Assembly (NCBI GenBank): GCA_017502165.1
Contig: JAFVVO010000025.1
Span: 8,854 to 72,853, forward strand
DNA length: 64,000 nt
Source: Clostridia bacterium
GTDB lineage: Bacteria > Bacillota > Clostridia > Christensenellales > QALW01
Direction of reading: 5' to 3'
Shown: piece after piece, positions 10,335 through 62,533 of the stretch
Layout: every line of letters starts with the position of its first letter
How positions within the stretch are numbered: position 1 is the first letter of the stretch
Notes under the pieces: generated by a model
The model's input: only the letters and a program-made list of their open reading frames with translations
Database searches by the model: none
What the model was told of the DNA's origin: nothing
Translations under genes and position numbers: made by a program

Positions 10335-10535
10335 CAAAATCGGCGCTCGCGATTATTTTCTTAAGGCTGACACAAGAAAAGTATTTCGACTCTATGCATA
10401 TCCGTTCAGGATGCGTTTTTCGCCTTCTCGGAATTTTCCAATGGCTTGTCCCTTGCTTGCGGCGCAAGGTAGAAAAACGCGTTTAGCATATCACGGCGAC
10501 GGGCTCGTGCAGGATTTTCACCTGCTTCCGTTTCT
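10335..10535 (-). promoter_or_regulatory. Cobalamin (B12) riboswitch
   Basis: The minus strand reads GGAAGCAGGTGAAAATCCTGCACGAGCCCGTCGCCGTGA ... AGCCATTGGAAAATTCCGAGAAGGCG. This matches the conserved GGTGAAAATCC / CCCGCCACTGT core and the B12-box region. It lies in the 5' leader of 10293..9347. Confidence 0.75.
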
Positions 10536-16629: not shown

Positions 16630-16977
16630 ATGCATAAACTTAAAAAACTATTAAAAACCATTTTGTATACAGCATATGGATTCTTTTCCGCCTTATATAC
16701 ACCAAGCTTTTTGAGTGTAGCATTTAACTTTACTCACGGTGCGGCAAATAATCCTGATGGGGAACTTTCCATACCGATTGGTATAGTAATTTTACTCACT
16801 ATTATAGCAATAGATATATTAATAATAGCAAAAACTATTAAATCTAGTGGCATGACAAAATTTGAAAAGGTGCTGACCATTTTACTTTTTGTAATCGTTA
16901 AAATTATTGGTTTAATGGTAGATCAAGACGGATGGAAAAATTTCATACATTGTTTCAAGTGGAAGTTTATGCAGTAA
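16630..16977 (+). CDS. Small 3-TM membrane protein (holin-like topology)
   Basis: 115 aa with RBS AAGAGGAA, three hydrophobic segments and a basic C-terminus. Confidence 0.4.
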   Translation: MHKLKKLLKTILYTAYGFFSALYTPSFLSVAFNFTHGAANNPDGELSIPIGIVILLTIIAIDILIIAKTIKSSGMTKFEKVLTILLFVIVKIIGLMVDQDGWKNFIHCFKWKFMQ

Positions 16978-27515: not shown

Positions 27516-28058
27516 ATGGTTTATTTAGCAGCAGCAATCGGATTTTTCGAGCGTTTTTGGCATCAGATTTTAATAATCGCACTTTCCTGCGTACCGCTTA
27601 TTGAGTCAAGATACGCTATTGTTTTAGGAATAGGCTTGTTCCCTGAATTAACCGTAGTTGAATTATTTATTTTAACACAGCTTGGTGCGTGTTTAACCGG
27701 ACTTGTTATCTTGCTGCTTCTTCGAACTGTTTTTAATTGGATGAAAACTACAAAGGTTTTTAGGCACCTTGTTGAAAAGCTTGAGGAGCACGGCTTAAAA
27801 AAAGGAAAAAGCTTAGAAGAAAAAATGAATTCTTCAAAAAACGAAAAAGCAAGAGCGTGGGCATCGGCAATCGGTGTATTCCTTTTTGTTGCCATTCCCC
27901 TGCCGGGAACGGGAGTTTGGACCGGCTGCTTGGTAGCAACCCTTCTTAATATTCGCTTTAAGTACGCATTCCCTGCAGTATGCTTAGGAAGTATAGTGGC
28001 TACCTTGATTATGCTTGCCTTCAGCAGCGTTTTCTTCCCGGGAGTTCAATTATGGTAA
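27516..28058 (+). CDS. COG2426-type small membrane protein (putative small multidrug export protein)
   Basis: 180 aa. Contains ESRYAI and PLPGTGVWTG motifs. Confidence 0.6.
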   Translation: MVYLAAAIGFFERFWHQILIIALSCVPLIESRYAIVLGIGLFPELTVVELFILTQLGACLTGLVILLLLRTVFNWMKTTKVFRHLVEKLEEHGLKKGKSLEEKMNSSKNEKARAWASAIGVFLFVAIPLPGTGVWTGCLVATLLNIRFKYAFPAVCLGSIVATLIMLAFSSVFFPGVQLW

Positions 28059-30265
28059 AATTAGTCGGAGAGGTTGAAGGTATTATCTACCGCAACGAAG
28101 ACACGGGCTATACAGTGTTCGTTCTTTCCGCAGACCAAGAATTTGAAACAGTAACAGGCACCTTCCCGCTAATCAGGGAAGGTGATTTTGTAGAGCTGAC
28201 GGGCGAATTTTTACTTCACGAGGTTTACGGAAAGCAGTTTAAGGCAACGTCCTACGAGATGGTTACGCCCAAAACAATCGACGAAATCGAAGCCTATCTT
28301 GCTTCCGGCATAATTCGCGGTGTCGGCCCCAAGGTTGCAAGGGATATTGTGGATTATTTCGGCACCAAGGCGCTGGAAATAATTGAGCATTCGCCCGAGG
28401 AGCTTTGTCTTGTGCAGGGCATCGGCAAAAAGAAGGCGGCGGTTATTGCCGAATCCTTCGGTGAGCTTTTAGGTGCCCAAAGAACTGTGATGTTTTTACA
28501 AAAATACGGTCTTACACCTAATATGGCGCTTAAAATATACGCCTTTTACGGTGATTCCACCATTTCCGTTTTGCAGGAAAATCCCTATAAAATGGTTAAT
28601 GATATTGATGGCATTGGCTTTTTAACTGCAGATAAAATGGCGTCAAGTATGGGCGTTAAGAAAGATTCCCATTTCAGAATAAGCGCCTGCTTCCGCCACG
28701 CCTTAACAGAGGCAGGAAGCGAAGGACACGTGTTTTTGCCTGAGGAGGTGCTCCTGAACAGAGCGGCACTTCTTCTCGGTATAGATAAAGAAAATATCCG
28801 CGCTCACATAATGCAATCTGCAAATGAGCAGAGTATAGTTATAAGAGTGATTCAAGGTGTACGAGCGATCTATCATCCTGCGTTTTTCTATGCGGAATCC
28901 ATGGTAGCAGGAGGTTTGCTTTTCCTTGAGGCGTCTGCAAAGGGTGAAAAGGAAAAACGGATACTTAAAGAAATTGAAGCCTATGAGCAGGAGAAAAAAA
29001 TAACTCTGGCGGAAAACCAGCGTTTAGCGGCTTCCCAGGCGGTTGAAAAGGGCGTTTGCGTTATTACGGGAGGTCCCGGTACGGGAAAAACCACCACGTT
29101 AGACTGTATTTTGCATCTGTTCCGCAAGCGCGGCTTAAGCATTGCTCTCTGCGCACCTACGGGCAGGGCGGCAAAAAGAATGGCAATAGCAACGGGCGAA
29201 GATGCTAAAACCATTCACCGCTTATTAGAATACAGTAAAAATGAAAGCGGATTTGCTTTTAAGCGCAATAAGGAAAAACCCGTAGATTGCGACGTTTGTA
29301 TCGTTGACGAAGCAAGTATGATAGATATTTTCCTTATGCAGTCTCTTCTTGAAGGACTTAAAAAGGGAACCCGTCTTATTTTGGTAGGTGACTCCGACCA
29401 GCTTCCGTCTGTTGGAGCGGGCAACGTTCTTGGAGATATTATTGCTTCGGGCGTTTTTCCCACGGTAAAGCTTGACAGAATTTTCCGTCAGGCAAAGGAA
29501 AGCACGATAGTTACCAACGCACACAAAATAAATAACGGACTTGCTCCCGAGGTTAACGTTAAGGGGGGAGACTTTTTCCTTGACCGACGCTTCTCTGAGC
29601 AGGAAATAGCAAAAACCGTTGTGGATTTATGCCTTAACCGACTTCCAAAGGCTTACGGTATTGAGCCGCTTCGGGATATTCAGGTGCTTACGCCCATAAA
29701 AAAAGGCACCTGCGGAGTTTTCAACCTTAATAAAATTCTTCAGCAGGCGCTTAATCCTGCGGATAAAAATAAGCCTGAAAAGGTGTTTGGCGAAATTGTT
29801 TTCCGTAAGGGTGACAAGGTTATGCAGATACGGAATAATTACGATCTGGAATGGAAAAGCTTTGATTCCTACGGCAATTTTGTCTCAGGTACGGGCGTGT
29901 TTAACGGTGACAGCGGAATAATAACTGATATAGATTCAGCAAGCCGAGAAATGACCGTGGTATTTGACGACGAAAAGGTTTGCGTCTATTCCTTCGATAT
30001 TTTAGAGGACCTTTCCTTAGCCTACGCCATAAGCGTGCATAAGAGCCAGGGAAGTGAGTTTCCCTTTGTGATTATGCCGCTTCCTCAGGGTGAGGTGCGT
30101 GTTATGACGAGAAATCTCTTCTATACCGCAGTAACCCGTGCGTCGAAAATGGTGGTGCTTTGCGGAAGAGAGGAATCTATCAATTCAATGATACAAAATA
30201 CCGATACCCAAAAGAGATATTCCGACCTTGCCAATAAGCTGAGAACGGGAATGGAAATGTTGTAA
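28052..30265 (+). CDS. recD2: RecD2-type ATP-dependent DNA helicase
   Basis: Walker A GGPGTGKTT, the DEASM box, an HhH region (GIGKKKA) and a C-terminal SVHKSQGSEF motif. The start ATG overlaps the upstream stop. Confidence 0.85.
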   Translation: MVKLVGEVEGIIYRNEDTGYTVFVLSADQEFETVTGTFPLIREGDFVELTGEFLLHEVYGKQFKATSYEMVTPKTIDEIEAYLASGIIRGVGPKVARDIVDYFGTKALEIIEHSPEELCLVQGIGKKKAAVIAESFGELLGAQRTVMFLQKYGLTPNMALKIYAFYGDSTISVLQENPYKMVNDIDGIGFLTADKMASSMGVKKDSHFRISACFRHALTEAGSEGHVFLPEEVLLNRAALLLGIDKENIRAHIMQSANEQSIVIRVIQGVRAIYHPAFFYAESMVAGGLLFLEASAKGEKEKRILKEIEAYEQEKKITLAENQRLAASQAVEKGVCVITGGPGTGKTTTLDCILHLFRKRGLSIALCAPTGRAAKRMAIATGEDAKTIHRLLEYSKNESGFAFKRNKEKPVDCDVCIVDEASMIDIFLMQSLLEGLKKGTRLILVGDSDQLPSVGAGNVLGDIIASGVFPTVKLDRIFRQAKESTIVTNAHKINNGLAPEVNVKGGDFFLDRRFSEQEIAKTVVDLCLNRLPKAYGIEPLRDIQVLTPIKKGTCGVFNLNKILQQALNPADKNKPEKVFGEIVFRKGDKVMQIRNNYDLEWKSFDSYGNFVSGTGVFNGDSGIITDIDSASREMTVVFDDEKVCVYSFDILEDLSLAYAISVHKSQGSEFPFVIMPLPQGEVRVMTRNLFYTAVTRASKMVVLCGREESINSMIQNTDTQKRYSDLANKLRTGMEML

Positions 30266-32710: not shown

Positions 32711-32872
32711 AAAATCACCTCTTTTTAATTAGTTTTTCATTAAATTCACTAAAAAAACAAGAAAAATTTGTAATTGTTTAGTTGAAATATTCTCAGTATT
32801 TTGGTATAATACAATGTGGAATGCCTTGCAGAAAGGCAAGAAAACACCACAAAAAGAAAGGGGGATACCGTT

Positions 32873-35800
32873 TTGGCAGATAAACAGAATAATTCAAGCT
32901 TTGAAGTTACGTCGGTATCAACCGGACAAAAGATAAAACCGCAGGTTCCTGCTGAAAGAACGGCCGGTGCAACGCGAAAAGCAACTCGTGCAGGAGCCAC
33001 CCGTACAAACGCACCGCGCACAAGTGAGAGCACTCATCCAACTCGCGCAAGCATAGGCGTTGAGTCGGTGCGTCCTGCAAGAGAAAGCGCGTCAAGAGCA
33101 TCAGGAGCAAGAGCAGGTGAAGCCCGTTCAACTTTAACGGGGGAAAGACGTTCAAATGTAACCGGCGAAGCCCGTCCAACTCGCGCAAGCATAGGTGTTG
33201 AGTCGGTGCGCCCTGCAAGAGAAAGCGCTTCAAGAGTAGCAGGAGCAAGAACCGGAGAAGCCCGTCCGGCCCGCGCAAGCGTAGGTGTTGAGTCGGTGCG
33301 CCCTGCAAGAGAAGGTGCGTCAAGAGCAGCGGGAGTAAGAGTAAGTGAAAATGACGGACAAGCAAAGAAAAGAGAGTCTGTTCGTCAAGCAAGCCAAGGA
33401 CCTCGAACAAACGGTGCAGGAGGACAAATCAGCGCTGAAGAAAGAGTGCGTGCAACGGTTGGCGTTGAAACGGTGCGCCCGAGAAGAGAAGGCTCTTTGC
33501 AAAATACTGACGAAAGGTCAGGTAACGGCCAAGCTGCAGTCCGCCGCCGCAGGATAGCGGATAACAGCGGTAATCAGTATCGGCAGGACAGAGAGCAGGA
33601 GAGAATAGAGAAAATCCGCGACGAAAAGCAAAAAGAAAGATATATGCGTCGCAAGGAGATAGAAGAGGCTTCGGCAATTTTTACTAAGAGTGATAAGCCT
33701 CGCAACTACTTTATCAACCTGATGATAGTTACCTTCAAGATGCTTCTTGTTTGTATGCTTATTGTGGGAATTTCGGGAGTAGGATTTATAATCGGTATGG
33801 CACAGTCATATCTTGAAAGCGTGCCTGAGCTTGACTTTGACAGCGTTGCCGAGCAGGAGCAAGCCACCGTTTTGCTTGACAATAAGGGGGAAACCCTCGG
33901 TAACTACTACAATATGGAAAATCGTGAATGGGCTGATTTGGAGGAAATTCCTGCAGATTTACAAAATGCGGTTATCGCCATTGAGGACGTGCGCTTCCAC
34001 AGACACATGGGCATTGACTTTAAGCGCCTTGTAGGTGCAGTGTTCAGCAACCTTACAAGCGATTCTATGCAGGGCGGCTCAACCATTACTCAGCAGCTTG
34101 TGAAAAACACGATGCTTTCCTTTGACCAGACGTATAAGAGAAAAATTCAGGAAGCGTCCCTTGCCATTGAGCTTGAGCAGAAGTATGAAAAGGACGATAT
34201 TTTAGAGGCGTACCTTAATACCATTTATATGGGAGGCTCCTGCTACGGCGTGAAAACTGCCGCAAAGGACTATTTCGGCAAGGAATTAAGCGAGCTTACG
34301 CTTCGTGAGTGCGCCTGCCTTGCAGGTATGATTCAGAACCCCTCAAGATATAATCCCAGAACTAACTATTATAGCCGTAACAATCCTGCAAGAACCGATA
34401 ACAGAACGAATCTTGTTCTTTATGAAATGTGGGAAAACGGTCTTATTTCAAAGGAGACATACGAATCAGCCAAGGCGGATACCATCTCCGTTTTGAAGGA
34501 TTCTCCATATTCAACCAAATCGGGAATGGTTTACTTTACCGATTACGTTATTGATAGCGTGGTTGAGCAGATTTTAATTGACAGAGGTCTTGAGAACAAC
34601 TCTAAAAACAGAAATCAGGTGCGCAAGGAAATCCGTACCGAAGGCTACACCATCTATACAACTATGGATGAGGATAAGCAGCGCGCCGCAGAAGAGCAGA
34701 CGTATAATTTCAAGGGCTATCCCACAATGAGATATTCTGCCGATAGCTATACCGTTGTAGGCAGAAACCCTGACGGAAGTGTTATCCGTCTTGTTCAGCC
34801 TCAGGCGGCGGTAGCGGTTATGGATTATCATAACGGTTATATCGTTGCCCTTGTTGGCGGTCGTCAGGCACCCACGGGAAGCCTGGAATTTAACCGTTCC
34901 TATCAGTCTACAATGCCCGTTGGCTCCTCAATTAAGCCTATTGCCGTTTACGCTCCCGCCATTGAGCGCGGCTCAGGCATCGGCACGGTTTATTACGACC
35001 AGAAAATTAAAATTGACGGTTGGGGCTCTGTTAAGGGTTATCCTGAAAATAACAGCCGAACATACGCCGGCTGGGTAACCATGAAGGAATCCTTTACCCG
35101 TTCCCTTAACACCGGTGCGGCTCAGGCTTTGCTTTATGACGTGGGACTTGATGAATCCTTCAACACCCTCGTTTCCTTAGGCGTTGACCCTGATCACATC
35201 AGTAAAACCGGCTCAGGTCTTGCACTTGGAAGCTCTGGCATAACACCCTTAGAGATGGCAGGAGCATTTTCCGCCATTGCCAATATGGGCGTATACATTG
35301 AGCCCATTGCCTTTACCAAGGTGGTAGATAAAACCGGCAACGTTATCGTTGATATGGTTGCCCGTCAGGACAGACACAGAGTTTTCTCCGAGAGCACCGC
35401 TTGGCAGACCACTTATTTAATGCGTCAGGTTGCTCTTGGCTTGCCCACAAGAATTAAGGTTCCCGGACAGACCGTTTACGGTAAAACGGGTACTAACTCT
35501 GAGCAGAGAGGCGTTTTCTTTGCAGGCTTTACGGGCTATTACACCTGCTGTGTTTGGGTTGGCTCCGACGCTTATAAGCAGCTTCAGAGCAACGCGCAGG
35601 GTAGCTCCTTTGCGGCACCCTTGTTCAGCGCCGTTATGACGGCTCTTCATAAGGGACTTCCCGATAAACCCAATTCCGACGTTGAGCCTGAGGCAATTGG
35701 CGTAATGAAAGTAAATTATTGCTCCGTTACGGGTAAGTTGGCAACTGAAGCCTGCGCAAAAACTCACGTGGCTTACGGAAACCCCTCAAATATGAGCGTT

Positions 35801-36022
35801 TGCGATCTTCACCGTCAGGTAGAAATTTGCTCGGCTTCCGGCGCACTTGCAACGGAAAACTGTCCTGAAGAAACAAGACAAAAGAGCACGCTGGTTATGA
35901 TTCCCGAAAAAGGAATATTCAACTATATGTACTACAATCAGTACAACTGGTTTGTTTCCACCGCGGGCACTCCGGTTACCAATATGAGTAACTGTAAGGT
36001 GCATCAGAATCAAACGGCATAA
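32873..36022 (+). CDS. PBP1A-family bifunctional penicillin-binding protein with a long Arg-rich N-terminal extension
   Basis: GT51 motifs (EDVRFHRHMGID, GGSTITQQL) and transpeptidase motifs (SSIKP, SLN, KTGT). Probable TTG start at 32873 after AAGGGGGA. The ORF track starts at 32816. Confidence 0.85.
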   Translation: MADKQNNSSFEVTSVSTGQKIKPQVPAERTAGATRKATRAGATRTNAPRTSESTHPTRASIGVESVRPARESASRASGARAGEARSTLTGERRSNVTGEARPTRASIGVESVRPARESASRVAGARTGEARPARASVGVESVRPAREGASRAAGVRVSENDGQAKKRESVRQASQGPRTNGAGGQISAEERVRATVGVETVRPRREGSLQNTDERSGNGQAAVRRRRIADNSGNQYRQDREQERIEKIRDEKQKERYMRRKEIEEASAIFTKSDKPRNYFINLMIVTFKMLLVCMLIVGISGVGFIIGMAQSYLESVPELDFDSVAEQEQATVLLDNKGETLGNYYNMENREWADLEEIPADLQNAVIAIEDVRFHRHMGIDFKRLVGAVFSNLTSDSMQGGSTITQQLVKNTMLSFDQTYKRKIQEASLAIELEQKYEKDDILEAYLNTIYMGGSCYGVKTAAKDYFGKELSELTLRECACLAGMIQNPSRYNPRTNYYSRNNPARTDNRTNLVLYEMWENGLISKETYESAKADTISVLKDSPYSTKSGMVYFTDYVIDSVVEQILIDRGLENNSKNRNQVRKEIRTEGYTIYTTMDEDKQRAAEEQTYNFKGYPTMRYSADSYTVVGRNPDGSVIRLVQPQAAVAVMDYHNGYIVALVGGRQAPTGSLEFNRSYQSTMPVGSSIKPIAVYAPAIERGSGIGTVYYDQKIKIDGWGSVKGYPENNSRTYAGWVTMKESFTRSLNTGAAQALLYDVGLDESFNTLVSLGVDPDHISKTGSGLALGSSGITPLEMAGAFSAIANMGVYIEPIAFTKVVDKTGNVIVDMVARQDRHRVFSESTAWQTTYLMRQVALGLPTRIKVPGQTVYGKTGTNSEQRGVFFAGFTGYYTCCVWVGSDAYKQLQSNAQGSSFAAPLFSAVMTALHKGLPDKPNSDVEPEAIGVMKVNYCSVTGKLATEACAKTHVAYGNPSNMSVCDLHRQVEICSASGALATENCPEETRQKSTLVMIPEKGIFNYMYYNQYNWFVSTAGTPVTNMSNCKVHQNQTA
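33040..33345. repeat. In-frame repeat of about 90-140 bp, 3 copies plus a diverged fourth (RASIGVESVRPARESASR units)
   Basis: Near-identical blocks start at about 33040, 33178 and 33266. A diverged copy lies near 33450. Confidence 0.8.
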
Positions 36023-41300: not shown

Positions 41301-43736
41301 ATGGGGCTTTTCGGATTCGGCGATAACACCGCCAGCCAACTTAAGAAGCTTGAAAAAATAGCCGCAAAAATAGAAGCGCTTGATGAAAAAATGCAGGGGC
41401 TTGAAGACGGCGATTTCAAGGAAAAAACAGAAGAATTTAAACAAAGATACGCTCTTGGAGAAACCCTGGACGATTTACTTCCCGAGGCATTTGCAGTTGC
41501 AAGAGAAGCGGCTTGGCGAGTTTTAGGACAAAAACCCTTCCACGTTCAGCTTCTTGGCGGTATCGTTTTGCATCAGGGCAGAATTGCCGAAATGAAAACA
41601 GGTGAAGGTAAAACTCTTACGGCAACCCTTCCTGCATATCTTAATGCAATTTCGGGCAAGGGCGTGCATATCGTAACGGTTAACGAATATCTTGCAGGAT
41701 ATCAGTCCGAAATGATGAGCAAGCTGTTTAATTTCTTAGGCTTAACCGTTGGTAACATTTTCAACCAGATGACAAGGGAAGACCGTCAGCAAGCTTATGC
41801 GGCGGACATTACCTACGGCACCAACAGTGAGTTCGGCTTTGACTATCTTCGCGACAATATGGCAAAAAGCGGCTCCGCCCGTTCACAGCGCGGACTTAAT
41901 TTCGCTATTGTTGACGAGGTTGACAGCATTTTAATCGACGAAGCAAGAACGCCTTTGATTATTTCGGGTATGGGTGAAGAATCCTCTCAAATGTATCTTA
42001 AGGCAAATGCAATCGTGCGTTCTTTCTCAGGTATTGCCGAAAAGGAAAAGGCAAGTAAAATTGACCTTCCCGACGAGGAGTATGAGGCGGAACGCTTAAA
42101 GCACGAATTTACCTTTGACGAAAAGGCGAGAACCGTTTCCTTAACCGAAACGGGCGTAACAAAGGTTGAACGCGCTCTTGGAATAGAAGATCTTTCGGAC
42201 CCCGAAAACACAGAGCTTGCTCACTATATAAATCAGGCGCTTAAGGCAAACTTTATTTTCAAGCGCGATAAAGACTATATCGTTTCTGACGACGGCCAGG
42301 TTAAAATCGTTGACGAGTTTACGGGCAGAATTTTAGAGGGCAGAAGATACAGCGAGGGCTTACATCAGGCGATAGAAGCCAAGGAAAACGTTAAGGTTGC
42401 TCAGGAAAACAAAACCTTAGCTACCATAACGTATCAGAACTTCTTCAGAATGTATAAAAAGCTTTCGGGTATGACGGGTACCGCAAAAACCGAGGAAGAG
42501 GAATTTAAGGGTATATACGCTCTTGACGTTGTTTGTGTTCCTACAAATAAGCCTATGATAAGGCAGGATCTGAACGACCGCATTTACAAAAGCATTCCCG
42601 ATAAGTTCAATGCGGTGGTGCAGGAGGTTATAGACCGTCACGCTTTAGGGCAGCCTATATTGGTAGGTACCGTTTCGGTTGAAATCAGTGAGCTTATTTC
42701 CGCAATGCTTCGCAAGCGCGGAGTTAAGCACGAGGTGCTGAATGCAAAGCATCACGCTAAGGAAGCGGAAATCGTTGCTCAGGCAGGAAGACTCGGCGCA
42801 GTAACCATTGCTACTAATATGGCAGGTCGTGGTACGGATATTCTTCTTGGCGGTAACCCCGACTTTATGGCACGAAAAGAGCTTAAAGGCGCAGGCTATG
42901 AAGACGATAAAATCGACCTTGCAACCGGCCATCAGTCAACCGACGATCAGGAAATTCTTGCTCTTCGCGCAAAATATAAGGAGCTTTACGCAAAATATAA
43001 GAAGATAACAGATGCAGAGCACGAGCAGGTTGTTCAGGCGGGCGGACTTTGCATTTTAGGTACCGAGCGCCACGAAAGCAGACGAATTGACAATCAGCTT
43101 CGAGGCCGCGCAGGCCGTCAGGGCGACCCGGGCGCAAGCTGCTTCTTCATTTCCTTTGAGGACGACCTTATGCGTCTTTTTGGCGGAGATAAAATGCAAA
43201 TGCTTGCAGGCAGAGCACTTGACGGTGATATGGCTCTGGAGGCAGGTATGCTTTCCAAGAGCATTGAAAACGCCCAGAAGCGTGTTGAGGGCAGAAACTT
43301 CTCAATCAGAAAGAACGTTTTGCAGTATGACGACGTTATGAATACTCAGCGTGAGGTTATTTATTCTCAGCGCCGCCGAGTGCTTGAGGGGGAGGACGTC
43401 TCCGAGTCCATTCGTGAAATGCGCAAAAAGGTTATCGGCAGATTCGTTCAGCTTTTTACCGCCGACCAGAACAAAAACGACTGGAACTTAAAGGGCTTGG
43501 TTGAAGAGTTAAAGCGTCTTTGCTTACCTAAGGAGGCAACGGCAAATGAGCTTAAGGGACTTTCTCGTGACGACATTGCTTTCCGCCTTAACGAGCTTTC
43601 AGAGGAAAGATACGTTGAAAGAACCAAGGAGCTTGCAAAATTAGGCGTAGATATCCGTGATATTGAGAGGTTTGCGCTTTTAGAGTCCGTTGACCGTCAC
43701 TGGATGGACCATATCGACGCTATGGATCAGCTTTAA
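41301..43736 (+). CDS. secA: Preprotein translocase ATPase SecA, first 811 codons, ending at an in-frame TAA
   Basis: Contains Walker A MKTGEGKT, DEVDSILIDEARTPLIIS and the remaining SecA motifs. The frame stops at HWMDHIDAMDQL*. Confidence 0.85.
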   Translation: MGLFGFGDNTASQLKKLEKIAAKIEALDEKMQGLEDGDFKEKTEEFKQRYALGETLDDLLPEAFAVAREAAWRVLGQKPFHVQLLGGIVLHQGRIAEMKTGEGKTLTATLPAYLNAISGKGVHIVTVNEYLAGYQSEMMSKLFNFLGLTVGNIFNQMTREDRQQAYAADITYGTNSEFGFDYLRDNMAKSGSARSQRGLNFAIVDEVDSILIDEARTPLIISGMGEESSQMYLKANAIVRSFSGIAEKEKASKIDLPDEEYEAERLKHEFTFDEKARTVSLTETGVTKVERALGIEDLSDPENTELAHYINQALKANFIFKRDKDYIVSDDGQVKIVDEFTGRILEGRRYSEGLHQAIEAKENVKVAQENKTLATITYQNFFRMYKKLSGMTGTAKTEEEEFKGIYALDVVCVPTNKPMIRQDLNDRIYKSIPDKFNAVVQEVIDRHALGQPILVGTVSVEISELISAMLRKRGVKHEVLNAKHHAKEAEIVAQAGRLGAVTIATNMAGRGTDILLGGNPDFMARKELKGAGYEDDKIDLATGHQSTDDQEILALRAKYKELYAKYKKITDAEHEQVVQAGGLCILGTERHESRRIDNQLRGRAGRQGDPGASCFFISFEDDLMRLFGGDKMQMLAGRALDGDMALEAGMLSKSIENAQKRVEGRNFSIRKNVLQYDDVMNTQREVIYSQRRRVLEGEDVSESIREMRKKVIGRFVQLFTADQNKNDWNLKGLVEELKRLCLPKEATANELKGLSRDDIAFRLNELSEERYVERTKELAKLGVDIRDIERFALLESVDRHWMDHIDAMDQL

Positions 43737-44036
43737 CAGGGTATTTCTCTGTGCTCAATGGCACAAAGGGATCCCTTGCAGGAATTTAAGATGGAAGGCT
43801 TCGATATGTTTGAAGAAATGACGCGCTCCATTCAGGAGGACGCAGTTCGTTTCGCATTTAACATTGCAATCAACATTCAGCCGAGAGAACATAAAATAAC
43901 AAACGAAAGCACCGACGGAACAAGACCTCAAAAGGTGAAAAAGGCTTCCCAGCAGGCAACAAGCCAGAAGGTTGGCAGAAATGATCCCTGCCCCTGCGGA
44001 AGCGGTAAAAAATATAAGCAATGCTGCGGTAAATAA
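43737..44036 (+). CDS. secA: SecA C-terminal segment (two-helix finger and zinc-binding tail), same frame as 41301-43736
   Basis: It continues [25 protein letters not shown]...[17 protein letters not shown] in the same frame (43737 minus 41301 is a multiple of 3). Confidence 0.7.
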
Positions 44037-44755: not shown

Positions 44756-45863
44756 TTGATAGAATTCGATTCATTTAAGCAACGTGCGGCTCAGGCGGCT
44801 GCAAATATCAAATTGGCAGGTGAATCCCTTTAACCCTGAGGGGATGAAGGACAGAATATTAGAGCTTAACGAGGAAATGGCTGAGCCTGATTTCTGGCTT
44901 GACCAGGAAAAAGCGCAGAAGAAAAACAAGGAGCTTGCTCACCTTGAAAGCAAGGTAAAGGAGCTTGCGTCCTTTGATAGCTCCCTTGAAGACGTGCAAG
45001 CTATGATTGAGCTTTGCATTGAAATGGAAGACGAGGATACTGCCAGGGAAATTGAGGCAGAGTTAACCTTGCTTGAAGCGAGAATAGAAAAGCTTCAGCT
45101 TGAAACAATGCTTACGGGACAGTACGATGCCAACAACGCTATTTTAACGCTTCACGCAGGGGCAGGCGGAACGGAGGCGCAGGACTGGACGGATATGCTT
45201 TACAGAATGTATCGCAGATATTGTGAGAAATCAGGATATCAGGTTGAAGTTCTCGATTATCTTGCAGGTGATGAGGCAGGAACTAAAAGCGTAACCTTCC
45301 GCGCTATAGGTGAAAACGCTTACGGCTTCTTAAAGGCAGAAAAGGGCGTACACCGTCTGGTGCGTATTTCTCCCTTTGATGCTAACTCAAGAAGACACAC
45401 TTCTTTCTCCGCACTCGAAGTTATGCCCGAAATTGAGGACGAGGGTGAAATCGTTATTCCTCCTGAGGACATTGAAGTTGAAACCCGTCGTTCAACGGGC
45501 GCAGGCGGTCAGCATATTAACAAGACCGAGTCCGCCATCAGAATTATTCATAAGCCTACGGGCATTATCGTTCAATGCCAGCAGGAGCGTTCACAGATTC
45601 AGAACAGAGAAACTGCTATGAATATGCTTCGATCCAAGCTTATTGAACTGCGTGAGCGCGAGCGGGAAGAAAAAGAGCTGGAGCTTAAGGGCGACATTAA
45701 AAAGATTGAATGGGGCAGTCAGATACGTTCCTACGTTTTCCACCCCTACAATATGGTAAAGGACCACAGAACCAATGCGGAAACGGCAAATATTCAGAGC
45801 GTTATGGACGGCAATCTGGATATGTTTATCCGCGCATATTTAGGTAAAAAGGATAATAATTGA
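44756..45863 (+). CDS. prfB: Peptide chain release factor 2, requiring a +1 frameshift at 44828-44834 (join 44756..44830, 44832..45863)
   Basis: ORF0 reads (M)IEFDSFKQRAAQAAANIKLAGESL then stops. The +1 frame continues NPEGMKDRILELNEEMAEPDFW. SPF and GGQHINKTESA motifs are present. The internal SD-like AGGTGA lies upstream of the shift site. Confidence 0.85.
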
Positions 45864-57017: not shown

Positions 57018-57857
57018 ATGGATAGATGGATGAGATTTCCCGGTTTTAAGAAAAAAGCCTTTACAATGAGCTATGACGACGCTGTTCAGCAGGATAAGCG
57101 GTTAGTGGAAATTATGCTCAAAAACGGGCTAAAGGGAACGTTCAATATTTGTACCGAACGTTTTGTTCCTGAAGGTACGAAGTTCCCTGAAGGACAAATT
57201 CACAGACGAATGACAAAAAAGGAAACCTACGAGCTTTTTAATAAAGAAGGCATAGAAATTGCCGTTCACGGTTGCAACCATCCCCGCCTTGAAGCTTTGC
57301 CTGACAATGAGTGCGCCTACGAAATTCTGCAGGACAGAACTAATATTGAAAAAGAAACGGGCAAAATTTGCAGGGGCATGGCATACCCTTACGGCACCTT
57401 CAACGAAAAGGTTAAAGAAATTGCAAAAGCCTGCGGTATTCTTTATGCCCGCGGAATTGAATGCGAGCCAAACTTTGCAATTTCAAATGATTGGCTCGCG
57501 CTTAAACCCACCTGCCACCATAACGCGCCAAACCTTATGGATTTAGCCAAAGAGTTTGTTGAAATGAATGTTTGGGACGAGCCCAGAATGTTCTATCTTT
57601 GGGGACATAGCTTTGAGTTTGAAGCCAACAATAACTGGAACGTTATTGAAGAATTTGCTTCATTTATGGGCAAAAGAGAAGACGTCTGGTACGCAACGAA
57701 CATCGAAATCTTTGAATATATTGAAGCGTATAAGCGCTTGCGTGTTTCCAACGACGGCAAAATTTACTTTAACCCCACAAGCACTACACTTTATTTTGAC
57801 GTGCACTTTAAGCTCTATGAGCTTAAGCCGGGGGAAACGCTTGTGATTGAGGAATAA
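57018..57857 (+). CDS. Polysaccharide deacetylase (NodB homology) family protein
   Basis: FTMSYDDAV...GTFNI...HGCNHP fits the NodB motifs. Confidence 0.7.
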   Translation: MDRWMRFPGFKKKAFTMSYDDAVQQDKRLVEIMLKNGLKGTFNICTERFVPEGTKFPEGQIHRRMTKKETYELFNKEGIEIAVHGCNHPRLEALPDNECAYEILQDRTNIEKETGKICRGMAYPYGTFNEKVKEIAKACGILYARGIECEPNFAISNDWLALKPTCHHNAPNLMDLAKEFVEMNVWDEPRMFYLWGHSFEFEANNNWNVIEEFASFMGKREDVWYATNIEIFEYIEAYKRLRVSNDGKIYFNPTSTTLYFDVHFKLYELKPGETLVIEE

Positions 57858-61418: not shown

Positions 61419-62533
61419 AGAAAATTTTTGCAGTAATTTTGCTTTTGACTATGCTTCTGCCCCTTTGCGCATGCAGAGAAAGTGAGCAAATTGATGAAAT
61501 CGCCTTTGTAAAGGTGCTGGGACTTGATAAAACAAAAGACGGAATACTTTTAACTGCAGGTATGCAGGGACCAAAGCCCAAGGAACAAAATCTCGGCTCC
61601 TCTGCCCAGGAATATATTTCCGTTACCTGCGAAACCGTTTCCCAAGGCTTAAGCCTTTTAGAAGCGGAAACGGAAAAGAAAATATTTTTCGGGCAGATAA
61701 ACAGTGTTTTGTTTGGTGAGGAATTTGCCAAGCACGGCATACTTGATACGGTTGATTATCTGGTAGGCTCAGACGAGCTTCGGTTTGATATTCCTTTGGT
61801 GGTGGTCAAGGACACTACGGCATCAAAGCTGATAGAAAACGGCAGTGAAGAGGATATGCACGTTTCCGAAAAAATAGAAAAGCTGCTTGCGGTAATTTAC
61901 AGCACGTCCATTTCCGACAAGGTGGAAATGTCCAAGGTAGTAAATATGCTTGAGGACCCATTCAGGTCAGTTTATCTGCCCTACGTGCAAGCAGAAAACG
62001 GGGGAAAGGATTTTTCTCTTGGGGGCTTTTGCGTCTTCAGAGGGGATAAAATGCTGGACTATCTTTCGCCTGAAATTTCACGCGGTGTAAATTTTCTCAA
62101 CGATAACGTTGAAAATGCGGTGCTTGTTCTTACTCTTGACGATGCAAGGGTAAGCCTTAAGATTTCCAAATGCAAAACGAAAAAGCAGATTAAAAACGGG
62201 ATTTTTAAGGTGGACGTAAGCTTTACCTCCGAGATTTTACAGGCAGACAGCGGGATTGACGAGCTTGACGAAAAAACCGCTCAAAGAATAATTGAAAAGC
62301 AAAACGGTGAAATTAAAAAGCTTCTTGAAGGAACGGTAGAAAAGCTTAAGGACTATCCTACGGATTGTGCAGGCTTCGGTAAAACCTTTGAAAATAAAAG
62401 TCCCAAGGAAGCAAAAAAATTCGAAAAGAACTGGAACGAGACCTTTGGAAGAATAAAATATGAAATCAACGTAGAATCAAAAATAGATCCTTCAAAAACC
62501 TCGGGTAAGCCGGTAAAGCAGGGAGGCGACTAA
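61415..62533 (+). CDS. Ger(x)C family germination lipoprotein
   Basis: Lipobox LPLCAC and a Spore_GerAC pattern. Confidence 0.8.
   Translation: MKKIFAVILLLTMLLPLCACRESEQIDEIAFVKVLGLDKTKDGILLTAGMQGPKPKEQNLGSSAQEYISVTCETVSQGLSLLEAETEKKIFFGQINSVLFGEEFAKHGILDTVDYLVGSDELRFDIPLVVVKDTTASKLIENGSEEDMHVSEKIEKLLAVIYSTSISDKVEMSKVVNMLEDPFRSVYLPYVQAENGGKDFSLGGFCVFRGDKMLDYLSPEISRGVNFLNDNVENAVLVLTLDDARVSLKISKCKTKKQIKNGIFKVDVSFTSEILQADSGIDELDEKTAQRIIEKQNGEIKKLLEGTVEKLKDYPTDCAGFGKTFENKSPKEAKKFEKNWNETFGRIKYEINVESKIDPSKTSGKPVKQGGD

Follow-up and report, generated by a model that had tools for sequence, protein, structure and literature searches.

The window, a stretch of 64,000 nucleotides, carries a secA gene with an in-frame TAA, and the question is whether this codon is a site that the ribosome decodes, a genuine lesion of the gene, or an error in the deposited sequence. 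A sequence-only reading had reported the stop, and we confirmed it as codon 812, at 43734-43736, in the context GAT CAG CTT TAA CAG GGT ATT (43725-43745). The relevant parts of the gene are as follows.

41301-44036, + strand: secA, 911 codons and a terminal TAA, with the interruption at codon 812 (from translation, Pfam and comparison with the intact protein P0001).
41301-43736, + strand: truncated 811-aa product, publicly annotated as NCBI MBR2861272.1, 'MAG: SecA [Clostridia bacterium]'.
43734-43736, + strand: in-frame TAA, codon 812; the strain's other assemblies have AAA (Lys), the sole difference being A to T at 43734.
43737-44036, + strand: 99 in-frame codons past the stop, encoding part of the two-helix finger (tip and second helix), a linker and the zinc-binding SEC-C tail (from Pfam and alignment to the B. 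subtilis structures).
43752-43754, + strand: TGC (Cys818), CGC (Arg) in the other assemblies, in the GIxLR motif adjoining the finger tip.

The secA frame opens with ATG at 41301 and runs for 811 codons to the TAA at 43734-43736; past the stop the codons (43737-44033) continue in the same frame up to a terminal TAA at 44034-44036. The earlier statement that 99 downstream codons stay in frame 0 and encode part of the finger and the zinc-binding tail was thereby upheld, the latter point by Pfam, which assigned SecA_DEAD, SecA_PP_bind, P-loop_SecA and most of SecA_SW to the first piece, and the last 43 positions of SecA_SW (157-199) plus the SEC-C zinc motif to the second. Together the two pieces contain the DEAD motor, the preprotein cross-linking domain, the wing/scaffold and the SEC-C motif of a SecA preprotein translocase in the canonical order. 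The conceptual full-length product is 60-84% identical to annotated SecA proteins, and the window SecA also aligns with solved SecA structures (B. subtilis 1tf2 and 3iqy).

We then compared the locus with other assemblies of the same strain. Two independent metagenome assemblies, L001 (ENA ERZ28653969, scaffold_438) and L002 (ENA ERZ27256853), both have AAA (Lys) at codon 812. The former equals the window across 22,636 aligned bases except for A/T at 43734 and C/T at 43752, and the latter across 22,736 bases except for the same two sites and for 41685, where L002 has a private G/A. Joining of L001 with L090 and L086, also from scaffold_438, extended the comparison to positions 10521-64000 of the window (53.5 kb), over which it differs from the joined contig by three substitutions (16929, 43734, and 43752) and one 1-nt indel at 61801. 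Within secA, 909 of the 911 residues are the same as in the intact allele, and the 2.7 kb of DNA show no further difference, synonymous or otherwise. The intact 911-aa protein (P0001) is found on four contigs and a near-identical intact one (P0122) on one more, while the 811-aa form is known only from a single NCBI MAG contig (MBR2861272.1, 78,435 bp); the 90% cluster of P0001 has as its other members the window's 811-aa product and P0122. The 811-aa and 92-aa ORFs were looked up by exact product, with no contig on record for either, and exact-pattern scans of genome and metagenome contig collections, with N at both variable sites, found no match to the variant haplotype elsewhere. The closest species in the genome contig collection is 79% identical. 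Contigs from other samples or runs match the window exactly where they overlap it or differ at a few sites; judged from these identities, this is one near-clonal strain present in several samples, and the sample names ('XIEF21-1_SAMN158300xx') suggest a single study.

Several other differences among these assemblies lie outside the two altered codons. The difference at 16929, the sole other substitution relative to scaffold_438 in the 53.5 kb, is a synonymous GAC/GAT in a small membrane-protein ORF (16630-16977) and suggests that the window comes from another sample or sub-strain than scaffold_438. The private change of L002 (its position 10385, corresponding to 41685 of the window) replaces Glu129 of SecA with Lys in the conserved TVNEYLA motif. 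About seven variant events were counted among the assemblies of the strain, two of them in secA, which makes up ~4.5% of the compared length; by a rough estimate the probability of at least two is ~0.04, and the share received by secA may be due to chance. At 61801 (L086 13849, L088 7062) a 1-nt deletion in the sister assemblies leaves a GerAC germination gene in pieces of 138 and 243 aa, and at 57560-57564 (L087 6257) a 5-nt deletion in a sister leaves a polysaccharide deacetylase gene in pieces of 195 and 89 aa; both genes are intact in the window. Since these indels break genes, null alleles may be segregating in the population and are possibly common there. A 90-nt tandem repeat (33160-33340; 2.0 copies, 87% matches) belongs to the N-terminal portion of a class A penicillin-binding protein gene (32816-36022); the scaffold of one sister assembly is broken there by a gap of Ns. 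A suspected second lesion, in a RecD2-like gene (27980-30265), was discarded: the 737- and 761-aa versions differ in the start codon only and their DNA is identical.

The orthologue comparison that the sequence-only reading had proposed as a check pointed in the same direction as the sister assemblies. From species-representative genomes we collected 80 related loci, in 65 of which the motif was readable. Codon 812 specified Arg or Lys in all 65, as it does in the two same-strain assemblies, and a stop at this codon was absent from every readable relative. Codon 818 specified Arg in 63 of the 65 and Gln in the other two. The residue lost to the stop had been described as a conserved Arg; this is true of the more distant relatives, but the closest ones have Lys (AAA).

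The gene had also been described as showing no damage apart from the stop, which turned out to be wrong. A C-to-T change at 43752, 18 nt 3' of the first, replaces the near-invariant Arg818 with Cys, and the window reads MDQL*QGISLCS where the intact P0001 reads MDQLKQGISLRS. The stop and Cys818 both fall on conserved residues of the MDxL[RK]xGIxLR motif, within the SecA catalytic core. By our own arithmetic, two random substitutions in ~32.6 kb would lie within 18 nt of each other with a chance of ~1e-3. Because the 53.5 kb hold so few differences and an independent pair would rarely fall 18 nt apart, we think that the changes at 43734 and 43752 are best read as one event, damaging or erroneous, and the linked substitution at 43752 is the strongest clue to such an event. 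As to its nature, a donor for the paired changes, direct or inverted, was absent from the vicinity of the site, and none exceeding 11 nt was present anywhere in the window; template switching and gene conversion were rejected for want of such a donor there. Mutagenesis of the DGR type fits the A-to-T change but not the C-to-T one, and a template repeat is absent. The classic damage signature is matched neither by the A-to-T change nor by the pair as a whole.

What the stop would do to the protein can be judged from homologues. In the solved structures of B. subtilis SecA, MDQLRQGIHLRAYAQ is the stretch that aligns with the motif, and our alignment to E. coli SecA (P10408) pairs Lys812 with Arg786, Arg818 with Arg792, and Met820 with Tyr794, the last at the finger tip. 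In the E. coli protein, approximately residues 1-832 form the catalytic core, with only the tail (833-901) outside it (PMC6620043), and the two-helix finger enters SecY and is critical for translocation (PMC5963308). An E. coli SecA without the C-terminal tail (833-901) is functional, and it resembles the window's product in that the zinc-binding tail and linker are gone in both. However, the E. coli tail deletions keep the finger, whereas the cut in the window (approximately at E. coli residue 786) is inside the core and removes the finger tip and second helix (PMC6620043, PMC5963308). The 811-residue product, deprived of these, is expected to be inactive.

The changes, then, are private and clustered, the orthologues have no stop at this place, a recoding signal is absent, and TAA is an ordinary terminator in this DNA. 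We consider it probable that the stop arose as a consensus error or belongs to a dead-end allele, caught in one metagenome-assembled genome. The possibility of an error (or of a very recent lesion) had been among those listed in the sequence-only reading, and it gains support from the AAA of the same-strain assemblies and from the lack of any orthologue with the stop. By this explanation, AAA (Lys812) would have become TAA through a single-base change limited to one metagenome-assembled genome, together with the change of CGC (Arg818) to TGC (Cys). The source may be an error in the consensus, caused by PCR, by a template that was bad or damaged, or by low coverage at this place; it may also be a dead-end defective allele that the assembler picked. 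The organism's SecA would be the product of the intact gene of 911 codons that the strain's other assemblies contain, and the TAA at 43734 would not be a site meant for ribosomal decoding. We infer that the pair reflects an artefact, or else an allele that is not viable, and not the true genotype of a living lineage.

Of the two sources, an artefact is favored by the fact that the pair is private, clustered and doubly damaging in an essential gene that is otherwise base-identical to the intact allele. Against pure error stand the gene-breaking indels of the sister assemblies at 61801 and 57560, which indicate that real null alleles may be common. Furthermore, short-read metagenome assemblers usually discard k-mers seen once, so a haplotype with two errors in a 78-kb contig needs some read support, which leaves room for a real allele. 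The case resembles the internal stops called in other metagenome-assembled genomes in being a single-base nonsense change in an essential, conserved gene of one assembly, with the sisters and orthologues intact. It is unlike the typical case in that a second nonsynonymous change lies 18 nt away, as in a clustered event and not a lone miscall. If the preferred explanation is correct, the 811-aa 'SecA' of MBR2861272.1 is a truncated call produced by a private lesion and not a naturally short SecA. The comparison with sister assemblies offers a quick way of separating private lesions from conserved recoding sites.

It is unlikely, in our judgment, that the null allele of the window is real and either fixed or predominant in the strain, with the load carried by another SecA (second secA or secA2) encoded elsewhere; the gene would then be a very young pseudogene. 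The change does stand in a deposited 78-kb contig, where it is annotated as an 811-aa protein, the adjacent second damaging change is of the kind expected under relaxed selection, and some Firmicutes have SecA2 paralogues (C. difficile SecA2, structures 6t4h and 6sxh). Yet relative to the intact secA allele the lesions amount to the stop and the adjoining Arg818Cys, with nothing else in 2.7 kb; with 909 of 911 residues intact and no synonymous differences, the gene could have begun to decay only very recently. A pair of changes separated by 18 nt, in 53 kb that are otherwise identical, also looks like one event and not like gradual decay. A tblastn search of the 64 kb of the window found no second secA, and a decaying secA was seen in none of the relatives fetched.

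Rescue of a real allele during translation, either by readthrough of UAA-C or by re-initiation at the AUG at 43758 to give 811-aa and 92-aa pieces, is very improbable. Two features downstream of the stop bear on it.

43738-43776, + strand: RNA hairpin of 16 pairs directly 3' of the TAA (predicted fold, z = -2.2).
43758-43760, + strand: internal in-frame ATG, encoding the finger-tip Met, without a usable Shine-Dalgarno sequence; the nearest GGG ends 16 nt upstream.

In favor of rescue, the C that follows the stop is regarded as giving a weak termination context (bioRxiv 10.1101/2024.09.24.614795), the in-frame AUG begins 22 nt past the stop, and the hairpin is strengthened by the 43752 change, which turns a C.A mismatch into a U-A pair (-18.3 versus -14.4 kcal/mol, i.e., by 3.9 kcal/mol). 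The hairpin, however, is not conserved and is probably incidental: of its 16 pairs, 8.5 on average are retained in the relatives, and 10 in a relative whose peptide is the same. The earlier remark that the ATG at 43758 has no ribosome-binding site agrees with what we found in the sequence, and the 92-aa ORF that it would open (43758-44036) is nowhere on record as a called gene. UAA is recognized by both release factors, and in the window it is the main terminator, closing 29 of the 39 ORFs that have 200 codons or more, among them secA. No suppressor tRNA that might rescue the gene is encoded in the window, whose sole tRNAs are Thr-CGT, Leu-CAA, and Leu-AAG. Since the stop is absent from both the orthologues and the sister assemblies, nothing has been selected to decode it. 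A SecA made by readthrough would still carry Arg818Cys, and a split product would lack seven finger residues and have its catalytic core cut (PMC6620043, PMC5963308).

The same observations bear on context-dependent readthrough of the UAA, which the sequence-only reading had entertained and for which we found no support. Neither a conserved stop with constraint downstream of it nor a conserved 3' stimulatory context was found at secA, and with the stop missing from the relatives and the hairpin unconserved, a conserved readthrough signal was rejected. Recoding, had it been borne out, would have given a new example of a stop codon decoded within an essential bacterial gene. That TAA and TGC are the true genotype of a living lineage with one secA, which would then depend on a two-piece SecA (residues 1-811 plus the 92-residue fragment) or on rare readthrough of the UAA, is barely credible. 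If it were so, the two-helix finger could be cut open in vivo.

Against these alternatives, the consensus error or dead-end allele remains the explanation that we prefer. The last reading concerns the resemblance of the secA site to the frameshift site of the nearby prfB gene.

44756-45863, + strand: prfB (RF2), read with a +1 frameshift; frame 0 at 44756 (or 44747)-44833 and the +1 frame at 44832-45863 (SPF and GGQ motifs).
44828-44834, + strand: true frameshift site of prfB, CTT TAA C, preceded at a distance of 4 nt by AGGTGA.

The use of CTT TAA C by prfB (44828-44834), as had been proposed, was verified, and the L001 copy of the gene has the Pfam domains PCRF and RF-1. At secA the same heptamer, i.e., a slippery CUU, a stop and a C, occupies 43731-43737, with the prfB site 1.1 kb downstream. 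The identity had been called striking, though perhaps a coincidence; the latter view prevailed, as CTTTAAC occurs 18 times in the window versus 15.6 ± 3.8 expected, a count reached in 28 of 100 dinucleotide-preserving shuffles. The identity of the two heptamers is due to chance: the ancestral CTT AAA C was already in place at secA, and one A-to-T change sufficed. In other respects the two sites differ. With the sequence of the 16S 3' tail assumed, the duplex with the anti-Shine-Dalgarno sequence has -11.6 kcal/mol at prfB versus -4.9 kcal/mol at secA, the latter no better than at other copies of the heptamer in the window, and no Shine-Dalgarno-like element was found upstream of the slippery codon of secA. 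The +1 frame past the secA stop closes at 43821 after 28 codons (ORF 43690-43821) while the homology to SecA stays in frame 0, in agreement with the earlier conclusion that a +1 shift could not rescue the protein. Thus, the known prfB site (CUU UGA C or CUU UAA C) has its heptamer in common with secA, but the upstream element, the continuation of the protein in the +1 frame and the conservation among orthologues are all absent from secA. A prfB-like +1 frameshift at CUU UAA C, or a reassignment of TAA, has a probability close to nil: the former has in its favor the heptamer of the genuine site 1.1 kb downstream, but it is excluded by the reading frames (the +1 frame is closed), the weak duplex and the chance-level heptamer, and reassignment is excluded by stop-codon usage, TAA being the main terminator, of secA too.

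The prfB gene of the window merits an observation of its own, in that it uses CTT TAA C and not the usual CTT TGA C. In a survey of 8160 genomes with the motif, CTTTAA was present in 1.4% and was described as scattered and not fixed in clades (bioRxiv 10.1101/2024.09.24.614795). In our small convenience sample, the TAA form may be more persistent than this survey implies and fixed in some clades. It was found in 7 of ~29 readable species, namely that of the window and those of L003, L014, L016, L022, L037, and L038, all of them related uncultured Clostridia, and the prfB sites of L014, L016, and L022 have an identical upstream context.
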